Positions 49,531-56,534 are shown, counted from the stretch's first letter. The stretch: DNA of 64,000 bases from Myxococcota bacterium (GCA_050618055.1 JBNLVK010000248.1:5788-69787); one strand, 5' to 3'. Numbers and translations are program-made. Notes: a model not told the origin generated them from the sequence alone.

Positions 49531-51315
49531 ATGCTTCAGCGCGCGGCCGGTCCGGTGGCGCTGGCCGTGCTCTTCCTGGGTCTGCTGGCGACCAGCTTCC
49601 GCAAGTGGACGGACGTGCACGTCGACTTCGGGAGCGAGCTGTACATCGCCTGGCGGATCGCCGAAGGCGAGCACCTCTACCGCGACCTCGCCCATCGCAA
49701 CGGTCCGCTGTCCCACTACTGGAACGGGCTGCTGTTCCGCACCTTCGGCGTGTCGCTCACCACGCTGGTCGTAGCGAACCTGGCGGTGCTGGCGGGCATT
49801 GCCGCCATGCTCTGGCGCGGCATCGCCCGCGCCTGCGACCGCACCACCGCCACGGCCTGCGTGGCCGTGATGCTGGGCGTCTTCGCCTTCGGCCAGTACA
49901 GCCAGATCGGCAACTACAACTACGTCACGCCCTACCACCACCACCAGACCCACGGCCTGGCCCTGGGGCTGGCGACGCTGCTGTGCTTCGACGCCGCCAC
50001 CCGCCGCGCGTCGCTGCGCTGGCTGGCCCTCGCCGGACTCTGCACCGGTGCCGTCTTCCTGACCAAGGCCGAGCTGTTCGTGCCGCTGGCGGGCGCGGCG
50101 GCGGTGGCCTTCGCCGCGCGGGGTCTGGGCGTCTGGCGGACCCGGGCGGGCGCGGGCTGCGAGCTCGCCGTCTTCGCCGGCGCGGCGCTGCTGCCGGTGG
50201 TGGGCCTGGGGCTCTGGCTCGCCGCGCAGATGCCGCCCTCCCAGGCGCTGCGGGGCCTGGCGGGAAACTGGGTGCACCTCGCGGGCGTCGGCAGCGACAC
50301 CTTCTACCGGCACAACGCCGGCCTGGACCACCCGGTGGGCAACGCCCGGCGCGTGCTGGCCGCGACCGGCGTGCTGGTCGTGACCGGGGGCCTCCTCTAC
50401 GCGCTCGACCGGCTGGCGGCGCCGCTGCGGGACCGGCGCTGGCTGCCCGCGGCCGCCGGTCTCGCACTCTTCGCGGCGCTGCTGGCCGCACCCGTTCCGT
50501 GGTGGAAGGCGGCGCCGGCGCTGCCGGTGGTGGGGACCGTCGCCGTCGCGGCGCTGGCTCTCGCGTGCCTGCGCACGGCCGACTCGGAGCGCCGCCAGCA
50601 TCTTCTTCCGCAGCTCCTGTTCGCGGTCTACGCCACCGGACTGCTCGGCAAGATCGCGCTCGCGTCGCGCTTCGACTGGTACGGCTTCGTGCTGGCCATG
50701 CCGGCGACCCTGCTGCTGGTGGCGGCCGGCGTCCACGGGCTGCCCGCCTGGCGGCGCGAGCGGGCCGGCGCCGGGCGGGTGGCGCGGGCGCTGGCGCTGG
50801 CCACCGTGGCGGCGGCCGGCGTGTTCTTCGTGACCGTGTCGGGCCGCCACTACGCCGCGCGCACCTTCGTGCTGGGAAGCGGGGGCGACCGGATGCTGGC
50901 GCGCGGTCCGGACCGCTCGCCGCGCCCCGCGCTGCGGGCCCGCACCCTGGACGACCTGGCCAGACGCGCCCGGCCGGGCGAGACGCTTCTGGTACTGCCT
51001 GAGGGGGTGTCTCTCAACTACTGGCTGCGAATGCGGAATCCGTCCCGGTTCCATCTCTTCCTGCCGACCGAGATCGCGGCCTTCGGCGAGCCCGCCATGC
51101 TGGCCGACCTGGCGGCCCACCCGCCCGACTACGTGGTGCTCGTGCACCGCCTGTGGAAGGAGTTCGGCACCGGGCCGTTCGGCCAGGATCCGCGCAACGG
51201 GAAGGCCCTGCGCGCCTGGGTCGACGCGAACTACCGGCGCGTCTCGGGCTTCGGTGCCGAGCCCTTCGGCCCCGACGGCTTCGGCACGGTCGTGCTCGAG
51301 CGCTCCGACCGGTAG
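49531..51315 (+). CDS. GT-C fold membrane glycosyltransferase-like protein (ArnT/PMT-like), C-terminal soluble domain
   Basis: ATG 49531. About 12 hydrophobic segments. Acidic first-loop region DVHVDFGSELYIAWRIAEGEHLY. The C-terminal ~120 aa are non-membrane. Family call is by architecture, less certain than the two neighbours. Confidence 0.65.
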   Translation: MLQRAAGPVALAVLFLGLLATSFRKWTDVHVDFGSELYIAWRIAEGEHLYRDLAHRNGPLSHYWNGLLFRTFGVSLTTLVVANLAVLAGIAAMLWRGIARACDRTTATACVAVMLGVFAFGQYSQIGNYNYVTPYHHHQTHGLALGLATLLCFDAATRRASLRWLALAGLCTGAVFLTKAELFVPLAGAAAVAFAARGLGVWRTRAGAGCELAVFAGAALLPVVGLGLWLAAQMPPSQALRGLAGNWVHLAGVGSDTFYRHNAGLDHPVGNARRVLAATGVLVVTGGLLYALDRLAAPLRDRRWLPAAAGLALFAALLAAPVPWWKAAPALPVVGTVAVAALALACLRTADSERRQHLLPQLLFAVYATGLLGKIALASRFDWYGFVLAMPATLLLVAAGVHGLPAWRRERAGAGRVARALALATVAAAGVFFVTVSGRHYAARTFVLGSGGDRMLARGPDRSPRPALRARTLDDLARRARPGETLLVLPEGVSLNYWLRMRNPSRFHLFLPTEIAAFGEPAMLADLAAHPPDYVVLVHRLWKEFGTGPFGQDPRNGKALRAWVDANYRRVSGFGAEPFGPDGFGTVVLERSDR

Positions 51316-54265: not shown

Positions 54266-56534
54266 ATGCTAAGGTCCCTGGCGCCGCCGCAGCGCGGTGG
54301 CGCGATCGCCATGACACCGAACCGTGCCGCCGCCCGCTGGATCCGGTTCGCGACGCCGGTCGGTCTGTTCGCCCTGGCGTGGATCGTCCGCGCCGGACCT
54401 TGGCGCGACGTGTTCGCGGGCGGCGTGGCGGTGCCGGCCGGCAACGACGCCTTCTACCACCTGCGCCGCATCGTCCACGCGCTGGCCGGCGGCGGCGTCC
54501 TCGAGTTCGACCGCTACCTGAACCACCCGACCGGCGCGCGCCCCATCTGGCCGCCGCTGTTCGACCGGCTGTGCGCCGCCGTGCTCGCGCCGTTCGCGTC
54601 GGACCCGGCGGGCGCCGGCCAGCCGCGGATCGAGGCGCTCGCCATGTGGATCCCGCCGCTGCTGGGCGGGCTGGCGGTGGTCGCCACCTGGGCGACGACC
54701 CGGCGCCACTGGGGCGACGCCGCCGGCCTGCTGGCGGGCGGGCTGCTCGCGCTGCTGTCGGGACACTTCTGGTACAGCCAGGTCGGCTTCCTCGACCACC
54801 ACGCGGCGGTGGCGCTGGCGGCGGTCGGCGTGCTGGGGGCGGGGCTCTCGCTGGTCGCGGCCCACGAGGGCGGCGCCGCGTCCTGGGCGCGGGCGGTCTG
54901 GCTGGGCGCCCTCGCGGCCCTGGCCCTGGCCCTCTGGCCCGGCAGCCTGCTGCACGTGGGTCTGGTCTTCGCGGGTCTGCTCGGCGTGCTGCTCGCGTGC
55001 CCCGTGGCAGAGGCGGCCCGGCGCCTCGCCTTCGCGCTGGCCTGCGCGTGTGGCGTGGCCGCGCTCCTGCTGGCACCCGCCGGCTGGAACGCCTCCTGGC
55101 CCCAGTGGGGCGCCTGGTCGCCGGTCGTGCTGTCGCGCTTCCAGCCGCTGCTGTTCGCAGCGGCGGCGCTGGTGCTGGCGGGCTGCGGCGTGCTGGGGTC
55201 GGATCGGGGGCGCCGCGCCGCGGTGCTGGTCGCGGGGTCGGCGGTGGTGGGCGCGGGCCTGCTGCTCGCGGTTCCCGGCCTGCGCGAAGGCCTGGACGAC
55301 GCCTGGCGCTGGCTCGCCAAGGCCGAGTCGTTCCAGTCCGGGGTGGCCGAGTCGCAGCCGCTGCTCTCCGACGGCGGCGTCTTCACGCTGGCCATCGCGA
55401 CGGCCAGGCTCTCGTGGCTGGGCCTGGCGCTCCCGCTGCTGGCCGCCTTCGTGCTGTGGCGGAAGCGTCGCGATCCCGCGTTCGCGCGAACCGCCGTGGC
55501 GGCGGCCTTCGCGCTGGGCCTGCTCGGCGTGACGCTCCTCCAGAAGCGCTTCTTCAACAGCGCGTCGATCGGCGTGGCGATGATGGGCGCCGTGGCGATC
55601 GTCGAGCTGTGGCGGGCCCTCCCGCGCCGCCCGCAGCGGGTGGCGCTCGTCGGGGTCGCGCTGCTCGGCACATGGCCGGCGTTGGCTCCCTACGGGCGCT
55701 TCCTCGCCAACGAGGCGCGTGCGCTGCGCGGCGAGAAGCACGCCGTCACGGGTGGCTTCATGCAGCAGCGTCGCGCGGTGGAGACGGCGCTCTGGCTGCG
55801 CGACCACACGCCGGCGACGAGCGGCTGGCTCGACCCGGCCCAGGCACCCGAGTACGCGGTGCTGGCGCCCTGGCCGCTGGGACACGCGCTCCAGTACGTG
55901 GCCCGGCGCCCGACGCTGGTCGACAACTTCGGCGACGACCTGGGCGGCGACGGCTTCGCCTTCGTGGACGGCTACTACCGGGCACCCGAGTCGGCGGAGC
56001 GGGTCGAGGCCGCGCGCGCGCGGGGTCCGCTACGTGGTGGCCCAGCCCGGTGCCGCCCACCTGACCGCACCGGCGCGGCCCGGCTCGCTGGCCCACGCGC
56101 TCGTGCACTGGGGCGACCCGGGCGAGGGCGCGCCGCTGGTCCGTCACCACCGGCTCGTCTTCGCGTCGGGCGGTATCGGCGGACGGCCCGACGATCCGCC
56201 GCTCTACCGGGTCTACGAACTGGTGCCGGGAGCCCTGGTCGAGGGGCGGGCCGCTCCCGGGGCCCGCGTGGAGCTGCGCATCGGCGTGGGCGAACGACCC
56301 GGCACACGCTCCTTCCACCGCGACGCGACGGTCGCCGACGCCGAGGGCCGCTACCGCTTCCGCGTTCCCCATCCCACGGGTCCCACGGGTGCCGGCGGCG
56401 CCCTGGGCGGCGTCCAGGCGGCGCCGCTCTACCGCCTGGCCTGCGCGGGCGAGGTGCGCGGGGTCGCCGTGCCGGAAGCGGCCGTGCGCTCGGGCGCGAC
56501 CGTGGTCGGACCGCGCCTCTGCGCCACGCTATAG
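54266..56534 (+). pseudogene. STT3/PglB/AglB-like oligosaccharyltransferase, reading frame broken by a 1-nt frameshift near 56010-56025 (or sequencing error)
   Basis: Frame 2 from ATG 54266 (alternative ATG 54311) gives AGNDAFYHLRRI, ~13 TM segments and APWPLGHALQYVARRPTLVDNFGD (cf. WWDYGYxxxxxxxxxTLVDGGKH of PglB), up to ...ESAERVEAARARG. The sensible continuation VRYVVAQPGAAHLT...RVYELVPGALVEG...YRFRVPHP runs in frame 0 to the stop at 56534. The switch lies in gccgcgcgcgcgcggggtcc. Confidence 0.7.

Follow-up and report, generated by a model that had tools for sequence, protein, structure and literature searches.

Can a glycan be assembled on the periplasmic side of a bacterial membrane by GT-C glycosyltransferases alone, and if so, what would it be attached to? 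This question is raised by four adjacent genes, here called g1 to g4, at positions 49531-56534 of a 64,000-nucleotide stretch of DNA (the window; G+C content approximately 73%). The window lies on an 89,366-bp contig of an NCBI metagenome-assembled genome (MAG) labelled Myxococcota bacterium (GCA_050618055.1, JBNLVK010000248.1:5788-69787). To our knowledge, PglB of Campylobacterota and of some Desulfovibrio accounts for almost all that is known of N-glycosylation in bacteria. A reading of the window made from its sequence alone (the sequence-only reading) had proposed a periplasmic protein- or glycan-glycosylation locus of GT-C enzymes. We found that all four products are predicted GT-C enzymes, as that reading held, but that g4 is frameshifted in this genome and that a role of g4 in modifying N-x-S/T sequons is not justified. 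On balance, we favour the interpretation that the locus encodes a module for glycan assembly at the periplasmic face of the membrane, consisting entirely of GT-C enzymes and arranged around a transferase derived from archaeal AglB.

g4 is an AglB-type member of the STT3 family

g4 matched the Pfam STT3 family (PF02516) with 55.6 bits against a cut-off of 24.5, and its 3' part matched AglB_L1 with 46.4 bits (cut-off 23.6). The model TIGR04154 (archaeo_STT3, archaeosortase-A-associated STT3) gave 155.8 bits with the 5' part and 44.8 bits with the 3' part, the latter over model positions 710-831, which leaves g4 below the subfamily cut-off of 450 bits. A profile of 29 members of the g4 family aligned over its full length with Archaeoglobus fulgidus AglB-L (AfAglB-L; 5GMY/3WAJ, residues 16-865, E = 1.3e-70) and also matched eukaryotic STT3A (E = 1e-7); no PglB was matched at E<=0.01 in this search of the PDB. 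By these matches, g4 belongs to the STT3 family and is of the archaeal AglB type, not of the PglB type. The earlier description of the fourth protein as STT3/PglB/AglB-like therefore stood for the family but not for PglB. Within the cluster, comparison of the g4 and g3 profiles gave a weak match of 40 columns only.

A scan for g4-related loci, based on 11 closer sequences and taking one genome per species, returned 80 loci. The bacterial loci among them all came from MAGs, labelled Myxococcota/'Deltaproteobacteria', Planctomycetota, Phycisphaerae, 'Spirochaetales' and Blastocatellia. The other loci encode AglBs of Methanosarcinales, Methanotrichales and Methanocellales, at 22-27% identity, the first two of these orders holding the nearest non-bacterial relatives, in agreement with the published finding that a few bacterial STT3 homologues nest inside the euryarchaeal AglBs (PMC4973528). 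STT3 homologues with 35-52% identity to the Myxococcota gene also come from MAGs labelled 'uncultured Spirochaetales/Spirochaetaceae' (L020, L032, L034, L059, L064 and L069), bins whose taxonomic assignment may not be reliable; one of them, L069, holds the full four-gene cluster.

The catalytic centre is retained and the sequon motifs are lost

Residue conservation was counted in the 120 closest database proteins, which are bacterial homologues. The catalytic and metal-binding residues, namely the Asp of external loop 1 (EL1), the EL2 site, the EL5 Glu and an Arg, are present in g4 and in 118-120 of the 120 homologues (Table 1). The EL1 residue D61 aligns with the 'ND' of the first loop of AglB-L, and we take its counterpart in AfAglB-L to be D47. 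The Arg, R428, is present in 119 of the 120 and aligns with 'QNRF' of AglB-L. The motifs NDAFYHLRR and WPLGH-x9-TLVDNFGD, which the sequence-only reading had singled out in g4, were both found where it had placed them, as were its motifs LWQDEAQT in g3 and FWLDEIWS in g2; TLVDNFGD occupies g4 residues 550-557, nine residues past WPLGH.

By contrast, the WWD motif was present in none of the 120 bacterial homologues. A phmmer search of the PDB aligned 'APWPLGH' of g4 with 'SWWDYGN' of AfAglB-S1 and AfAglB-S2, and every bacterial sequence among the fetched loci reads x-W-x-x-G-H in the WWDYG columns. The archaeal relatives that cover these columns (n = 26) mostly read SWWDYGNW: 19 keep WWDYG, and 7 carry variants such as SWSYG and LWYWG. 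The second sequon-related motif is affected as well. Following a conserved 'RYV(V/I)' strand, the archaeal relatives have D-x-x-M-x-x-x-K, matching 'DIEMETGK' of AglB-L, which we take to be the DK-type motif of the Kohda-group structures; the nearest archaeal relatives retain it. After the same strand, the bacterial clade reads 'AQPGAAHLT' or similar, with neither D nor K, and approximately 40 following residues are deleted. None of the 15 bacterial sequences inspected has a DK motif.

Structural work on PglB and AglB has established that the Ser/Thr at position +2 of the sequon sits in a pocket made up of WWD and the DK/MI residue. The loss of both WWDYG and DK from the bacterial clade thus makes canonical recognition of N-x-S/T unlikely, and naming g4 an oligosaccharyltransferase (OST), as the sequence-only reading had done, is not warranted in the N-x-S/T sense. 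Combined with the strict retention of the catalytic centre, this joint loss argues for an active enzyme in the bacterial clade whose acceptor would not be picked by N-x-S/T.

Set against the long type of archaeal AglB (AfAglB-L; TIGR04154 of Methanosarcinales), g4 therefore presents a mixed picture. It shares full-length homology and the GT-C fold with 13 transmembrane helices, the EL1 Asp, the EL2 D-H-H, the EL5 Glu, the Arg of Q-x-R-F, the central core and the AglB_L1 peripheral domain. Its clade differs in having x-W-x-x-G-H for WWDYG, in lacking the DK-type motif with the residues that follow it, in reading 'DNFGDD' for 'NNFQ', and in its bacterial host. With the Campylobacter and Desulfovibrio PglB/pgl systems, g4 has in common that it is a single-subunit STT3-family enzyme of a Gram-negative bacterium, but it has neither a sequence match at E<=0.01 nor WWDYG or MI, and its locus is without a phosphoglycosyl transferase, GT-B/GT-A enzymes and a PglK flippase.

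g4 is frameshifted in this genome

Gene borders were set by listing open reading frames (ORFs) and by G+C content at third codon positions (GC3). By these measures, g4 is read in two frames, with the STT3 part in frame 2 up to approximately 56026, the AglB_L1 part in frame 0 from approximately 56025, and a shift of 1 nt near 56024. GC3 in frame 2 is 0.92-0.96 until 56000 and then about 0.6, while that in frame 0 climbs to 0.94. Pfam detected the AglB_L1 domain in the shifted frame 0 only, and the frame-0 3' part aligns with the C terminus of every homologue. Joined at ...AARARG/VRYVV..., the two frames encode a protein of 756 aa whose alignment with the homologues, which are single ORFs of 740-780 aa, extends from end to end. 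We also considered frame 2 as the true 3' frame, in which the stop codon would overlap the start of the downstream gene lpd as 'ATGA', and rejected it because the frame-0 translation fits the homologues to the C terminus and carries AglB_L1.

A second assembly (Logan contig L086, SRR30568138) spans 49436-56428 with two single-nucleotide polymorphisms and no gaps, and is identical at the frameshift site, which argues against an artefact confined to one assembly. An error at read level, common to both, may be the cause, as the same reads possibly lie behind both assemblies and the site is a GC-rich run in which error could be systematic. An exact look-up of the four possible g4 products in a collection of 15 billion proteins returned no identical protein, and the NCBI accession numbering leaves one protein slot free between g3 and lpd. 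In this genome, g4 thus falls short of an intact STT3-family ORF. The shift replaces the last ~170 residues of g4, and the central step may for this reason be inactive here.

The most serious alternative to a working module is that the locus is decaying in this genome, with g4 a pseudogene and its neighbours either working without it or being lost too. We lean against this explanation but give it a substantial chance. A deletion of 1 nt puts the STT3 and AglB_L1 parts in different frames, it recurs in an assembly that differs elsewhere by two polymorphisms, and no protein of the searched collection matches any reading of g4 exactly. Against decay, g1, g2 and g3 are intact and carry all residues that are invariant in their families, the catalytic residues of g4 are all intact and lie upstream of the shift, and the agreement of the two assemblies may only reflect shared reads.

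g1, g2 and g3 are predicted GT-C enzymes of the ArnT/PMT kind

The sequence-only reading had taken the three neighbours of g4 for GT-C enzymes of the ArnT/PMT kind, and matches of their families, structural models of g1 and g2 and a profile link between g2 and g3 agree with it. The window proteins themselves matched poorly: g1 reached 19.8 bits with Pfam PMT_2 (E = 1e-3), under the cut-off of 26.1; g2 had no Pfam or NCBIfam match of its own; and g3 had no Pfam match and a weak match to TIGR03663 (Agl23; E = 1.7e-5). At E<=0.01, however, PMT_2 (PF13231) was matched by 22 of 30 homologues of g1 (best E = 8.7e-13), by 12 of 30 homologues of g2 and by 24 of 28 homologues of g3, and PMT (PF02366) by 1 of 30 and 16 of 28 homologues of g2 and g3, respectively. 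One g3 homologue is named GT39 family by NCBI.

AlphaFold2 (AF2) models of g1 and g2 (predicted local distance difference test, 92.3 and 91.8) consist of a helical bundle followed by a C-terminal alpha/beta domain. Foldseek searches of the PDB with the g1 model returned STT3, AfAglB, ArnT, AftA, PglB, ALG9 and Pmt4 (E from 1.5e-6 to 1e-2), and those with the g2 model returned STT3, ArnT (5ezm), ALG9, PglB, Pmt4, DPY19, Emb, AftB, ALG3 and PimE. The significant or top matches of both were all GT-C enzymes, including ArnT (5ezm/5f15). Profile-to-PDB sequence searches with the g1, g2 and g3 families found no GT-C entry and no solved ArnT or PMT, so the fold assignment of g1 and g2 rests on AF2 and Foldseek. 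As modelled, g1 and g2 have the GT-C fold.

For g3, the assignment comes through g2. BLASTP showed no significant similarity among g1, g2 and g3, and the g2-g3 relationship was seen by profile-profile comparison only: hhalign linked the two families with a probability of 97.9% (E = 5.8e-13) over ~380 columns and aligned FWLDEIW of g2 with LWQDEAQ of g3. This alignment indicates that g2 and g3 are distant paralogues with a common W-x-D-E first-loop motif. By the same kind of comparison, g1 and g3 are unrelated (probability 0.3%), and g1 has no detectable sequence relation to either. In the first loop of g1, D32 and G34 are invariant and D28 is at least 90% conserved. The g2 and g3 motifs resemble the first loop of Escherichia coli ArnT, which we take to read 'LWQPDETRY'; by analogy, the acidic first loop of g1, g2 and g3 would face the periplasm.

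The C-terminal soluble domains noticed in the sequence-only reading were also recovered, as an alpha/beta domain after the helical transmembrane bundle in g1 (residues 444-594) and g2 (~375-470), in g3 through its alignment with g2, and in g4 through its alignment with AfAglB-L, which includes the globular domain.

g1, g2 and g3 resemble ArnT (GT83) and PMT (GT39) in their predicted GT-C fold, the PMT_2/PMT matches of their families, the acidic first loop and the C-terminal periplasmic domain. They differ from them in that the window proteins stay under Pfam thresholds, no solved ArnT or PMT is matched by profile, and no ArnC/DPM1-type donor synthase is encoded nearby. A second comparison concerns pathway logic. 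The lumenal ALG enzymes of the endoplasmic reticulum (ER) and Haloferax AglS operate alongside STT3/AglB. In both cases (ALG3/9/12/6/8/10 with OST, and AglS with AglB), GT-C enzymes use polyprenyl-phosphate monosaccharides on the STT3 side of the membrane, and ALG9 and ALG3 are among the Foldseek matches reported above. Yet none of g1, g2 and g3 is orthologous in sequence to ALG enzymes or AglS, and coupling to g4 would follow from gene linkage alone.

The cluster recurs in related genomes with a variable gene set

The presence of four adjacent polytopic membrane proteins in the cluster was borne out. The genes are not co-directional (strands +, -, -, +). g1 and g2 converge, with an overlap of 85 nt between their 3' ends (51231-51315); the g3 stop adjoins the g2 start; and the starts of the divergent genes g3 and g4 lie less than 75 nt apart. 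Overlapping g1/g2 3' ends, of 9-121 nt, also occur in L001, L009 and L046.

The order g1, g2, g3, STT3 recurs in four other loci (L001, L009, L046 and L069) at 40-58% identity, with 40-47% for the STT3 gene, confirming that the arrangement is more than chance. Co-conservation was partial: the full set was found only in these close relatives, and more distant genomes keep either g1 or g2 beside the STT3 gene. g2 and STT3 alone occur in L006, L007 and L030, and g1 and STT3 occur in varied orientations in L010, L019, L027, L040, L059, L076 and L003/L013, and also in Blastocatellia (L081). In L003, L019, L027, L040 and L081, the g1-family gene adjoins the STT3 gene within different flanks. None of the 28 archaeal loci has a g1, g2 or g3 family member within 10 kb, from which it follows that the association arose within the bacterial clade. 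These patterns suggest that the set of attached GT-C genes is modular and varies between loci.

Elsewhere among the bacteria, the neighbours of the STT3 homologue are GT2, PMT, DUF2142, methyltransferase and LPG_synthase_TM genes. These surroundings resemble the archaeal neighbourhood in which PMT/STT3-like genes sit with an AglD-like GT2 (polyprenyl-phosphate-sugar synthase) and an MprF-like flippase (PMC5898192). Apart from STT3 itself, the family met most often within 10 kb of the STT3 homologues was Sulfatase/Phosphodiest: 22 of the 55 bacterial loci, in the range L001-L069, hold 53 copies in all. This frequency may merely mirror the abundance of such genes in these genomes; one also occurs in the window.

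Genomic surroundings and donor-supply candidates

Upstream, the cluster is flanked by genes for a PilZ protein and a Band7 protein. Downstream lie lpd (dihydrolipoyl dehydrogenase), a small lipoprotein, an alpha/beta hydrolase and Ada/AlkA, followed by a UbiA-family gene, an AAA_22 ATPase and the start of a phosphoglycosyl transferase gene (Table 1). As the sequence-only reading had stated, no GT-A/GT-B enzyme or flippase adjoins the cluster; this holds for all called genes of the window by Pfam and NCBIfam, of which seven were without a match, and a few gaps of less than 1 kb were unscanned. No pgl-type phosphoglycosyl transferase, GT-A/GT-B enzyme or flippase lies within ~7 kb on either side, the nearest candidate being the phosphoglycosyl transferase fragment at the window end.

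Several genes elsewhere in the window had been put forward as donor supply. Their identities were confirmed: a dTDP-glucose 4,6-dehydratase (rfbB), a PGM/PMM-type mutase, a UbiA enzyme and a DUF368/PopT-like protein. Their linkage to the cluster was not, since the UbiA gene stands beside the GT-C cluster in no related locus, and rfbB, the mutase and DUF368 lie 25-35 kb away among unrelated genes. The UbiA-family gene matches only positions 193-478 of the 482 of NF006088 and thus has no counterpart to the N-terminal region of this family; DPPR synthase (decaprenyl-phosphate phosphoribosyltransferase) is the second-best match of the gene, at 154 bits and under the model cut-off. The phosphoglycosyl transferase, which was not among the candidates of the sequence-only reading, accompanies the cluster in L001 only, where the syntenic gene encodes a full Bac_transf protein of 469 aa.

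In nine related loci, too, the gene after the STT3 homologue is lpd, and in L001 there is an overlap of 4 nt between the STT3 stop and the lpd start. Such an arrangement suggests that a metabolic gene is co-transcribed with a glycosylation gene. Downstream of the clusters of L001 and L006, the small lipoprotein shows weak conservation, and the L001 copy weakly matches PF27226 (AF_1845, named after an Archaeoglobus protein); to regard it as a candidate acceptor would be pure speculation. Further upstream, two paralogous genes fuse an ArsP_1-type permease domain to FG-GAP/ASPIC-UnbV repeats, with a Metal_hydrol gene between them and a gene for a VWA-domain protein next to them.

Table 1. Coordinates of the cluster, its motifs and surrounding genes within the window
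Feature	Position	Strand	Length	Evidence or remark
g1, PMT_2-like predicted GT-C glycosyltransferase	49531-51315	+	594 aa	MGH0032355.1, NCBI label 'hypothetical protein'
g2, ArnT/PMT-like predicted GT-C glycosyltransferase	51231-52715	-	494 aa	MGH0032356.1, NCBI label 'hypothetical protein'
g3, ArnT/PMT-like predicted GT-C glycosyltransferase	52712-54253	-	513-aa ORF (NCBI: 508 aa)	MGH0032357.1, 'hypothetical protein'
g4, AglB-type STT3-family protein	54266-56534	+	~756 aa after frame correction	
g4 5' part, frame 2: AglB-type STT3-family transmembrane domain and start of globular domain	54266-56026	+		Pfam STT3, TIGR04154, AfAglB-L match
g4 3' part, frame 0: remaining globular domain including AglB_L1 peripheral domain	56025-56534	+		Pfam AglB_L1, TIGR04154
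g4 frameshift site: one base missing in GCGCGCGCGCGGGG/TC	56010-56027	+		GC3 switch, homologue alignment, second assembly
g4 EL1 motif NDAFYHLRR (residues 60-68) with catalytic Asp D61	54443-54469	+		D61 in 120/120 homologues
g4 EL2 motif D177-H178-H179, divalent-cation site	54794-54802	+		D177 in 120/120, H179 in 118/120; aligns with 'NDHH' of AfAglB-L
g4 EL5 Glu E362, at the position of the TIXE/SVSE motif	55349-55351	+		120/120; aligns with 'TIAE' of AfAglB-L
g4 WPLGH (residues 536-540), degenerate, in place of WWDYG	55871-55885	+		Aligns with WWDYG of AfAglB-S1, AfAglB-S2 and AfAglB-L
g2 first-loop motif FWLDEIWS (residues 34-41)	52593-52616	-		W35, L36, D37, E38 invariant in 30 family members
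g3 first-loop motif LWQDEAQT (residues 39-46)	54116-54139	-		L39-W40-Q41-D42-E43-A44-Q45-T46 all invariant in 28 members
lpd	56542-57942	+		MGH0032359.1; TIGR01350, 546 bits; start 7 nt past g4 stop
Small lipoprotein	57952-58479	-	175 aa	LVAC lipobox, Ser/Thr/Pro-rich linker, N-V-T site
UbiA-family gene	61190-62119	+		NF006088 equivalog, 387 bits (cut-off 351)
Exopolysaccharide (EPS)-type polyprenyl glycosylphosphotransferase, N-terminal part	63401-64000	+		CoA_binding_3; TIGR03025/TIGR03023-like; runs off window end
DUF368/VCA0040-like protein	13357-14469	-		35 kb from cluster; sub-threshold matches to PopT polyprenyl-phosphate transporter, ~100 bits against cut-off 400
Sulfatase/Phosphodiest-family gene	18628-19923	-		
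ArsP_1/FG-GAP paralogue	36557-39766	-	~1050 aa	
Metal_hydrol gene	39776-40594			
ArsP_1/FG-GAP paralogue	40633-43767	-	~1050 aa	
VWA-domain protein	43822-45990			

Proposed function and alternative explanations

By the interpretation that we favour, g4 stems from a euryarchaeal AglB, and it has retained the binding residues for the divalent cation, for the lipid-phosphate donor and for the acceptor nucleophile. For this module, we infer the donors, the order of steps, the acceptor and the joint action of the four enzymes as follows. g4 would most likely move a glycan from a polyprenyl-phosphate or polyprenyl-diphosphate carrier onto an acceptor. g1, g2 and g3 would most likely add single sugars, taken from polyprenyl-monophosphate sugars, either to the precursor while it is still on its lipid or to the glycan once it has been transferred. 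The acceptor would be something other than the canonical N-x-S/T sequon, the Ser/Thr pocket formed by WWDYG and DK being gone.

Several observations weigh against this interpretation. g4 is frameshifted in both assemblies, and the bacterial members of the STT3 clade all come from MAGs and are known from sequence alone. The cluster has no linked gene for donor synthesis or for a flippase, and neither the downstream UbiA gene nor the phosphoglycosyl transferase gene is a conserved neighbour. Any gene of the g1, g2 or g3 families occurs within 10 kb in only ~23 of 55 bacterial loci. The Band7, lpd and Ada/AlkA flanks are also syntenic in the closest relatives, so part of the co-occurrence could be plain inherited synteny.

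A more far-reaching version, which we regard as tentative and would not expect to hold in full, is that g4 represents an AglB-derived bacterial family, spread over Myxococcota, Planctomycetota and Acidobacteriota MAGs, that kept the OST centre, replaced the pocket for the sequon, acquired a new acceptor specificity and has dedicated GT-C partners in an all-GT-C pathway like that of the ER lumen. The new specificity could be for Asn without a sequon, for an acceptor other than Asn or for one that is not a protein.

Two alternatives concern what is glycosylated. In the first, which we consider unlikely, no protein is involved: the GT-C enzymes would modify or build an envelope glycolipid or polysaccharide (lipid A or lipopolysaccharide (LPS) core as ArnT does, or a periplasmic polysaccharide or exopolysaccharide), or g4 would free the oligosaccharide from its carrier. 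The ArnT-like W-x-(x)-D-E loop motif of g2 and g3, the lost peptide-sequon pocket of g4 and the EPS-type phosphoglycosyl transferase fragment in the window are what such a locus might show. However, Asp and Glu residues equivalent to D61 and E362 hold the acceptor carboxamide in known OSTs, and both are invariant here; no LPS or EPS export genes are linked to the cluster, and the phosphoglycosyl transferase is linked in a single related locus.

The second, a canonical N-linked system of the pgl or agl kind in which g4 glycosylates Asn in N-x-S/T and the GT-C enzymes trim or extend the N-glycan, is in our view quite improbable. Membership of the STT3 family, the intact catalytic D, DHH, E and R, and the label dolichyl-diphosphooligosaccharide--protein glycosyltransferase that public pipelines give to g4 homologues all speak for it. 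It is contradicted by the absence of WWD from every one of the 120 homologues while the archaeal sisters keep SWWDYGNW, by the deletion of the segment that holds the DK motif, by the lack of a PglB match, and by the lack of pgl-type GT-A/GT-B and PglK-type flippase genes in the window.

That the four genes are functionally unrelated and have stayed neighbours through inherited synteny alone, as the conserved Band7, lpd and Ada/AlkA flanks and the restriction of the full set to four other loci might suggest, is the least probable explanation, given that g1- or g2-family genes adjoin the STT3 gene also where the surroundings are rearranged and in a further phylum (L081 of Blastocatellia, L040, L027 and L030), that the g2-g3 and g3-g4 boundaries are so tight, and that the association is confined to the bacterial clade.

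Implications

The STT3 family and archaeal-to-bacterial transfer within it were already known. A literature search returned no description of a widespread bacterial STT3 clade that has an intact catalytic centre, is without WWDYG and DK, and has dedicated GT-C partners. The locus points to a separate, archaeal-derived STT3 lineage that extends across several bacterial phyla, all of them uncultured in this clade. Its value is lower for the genome studied here, because the central gene g4 is frameshifted; orthologous clusters with an intact STT3 gene are available in L001, L009, L046 and L069. The variable set of GT-C genes suggests modular diversification of a glycan on the outer face of the membrane. 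If an enzyme of the g4 type is active, it would be an example of an oligosaccharyltransferase scaffold retargeted to a new acceptor, and the family may yield enzymes with relaxed or new site specificity for glycoengineering.

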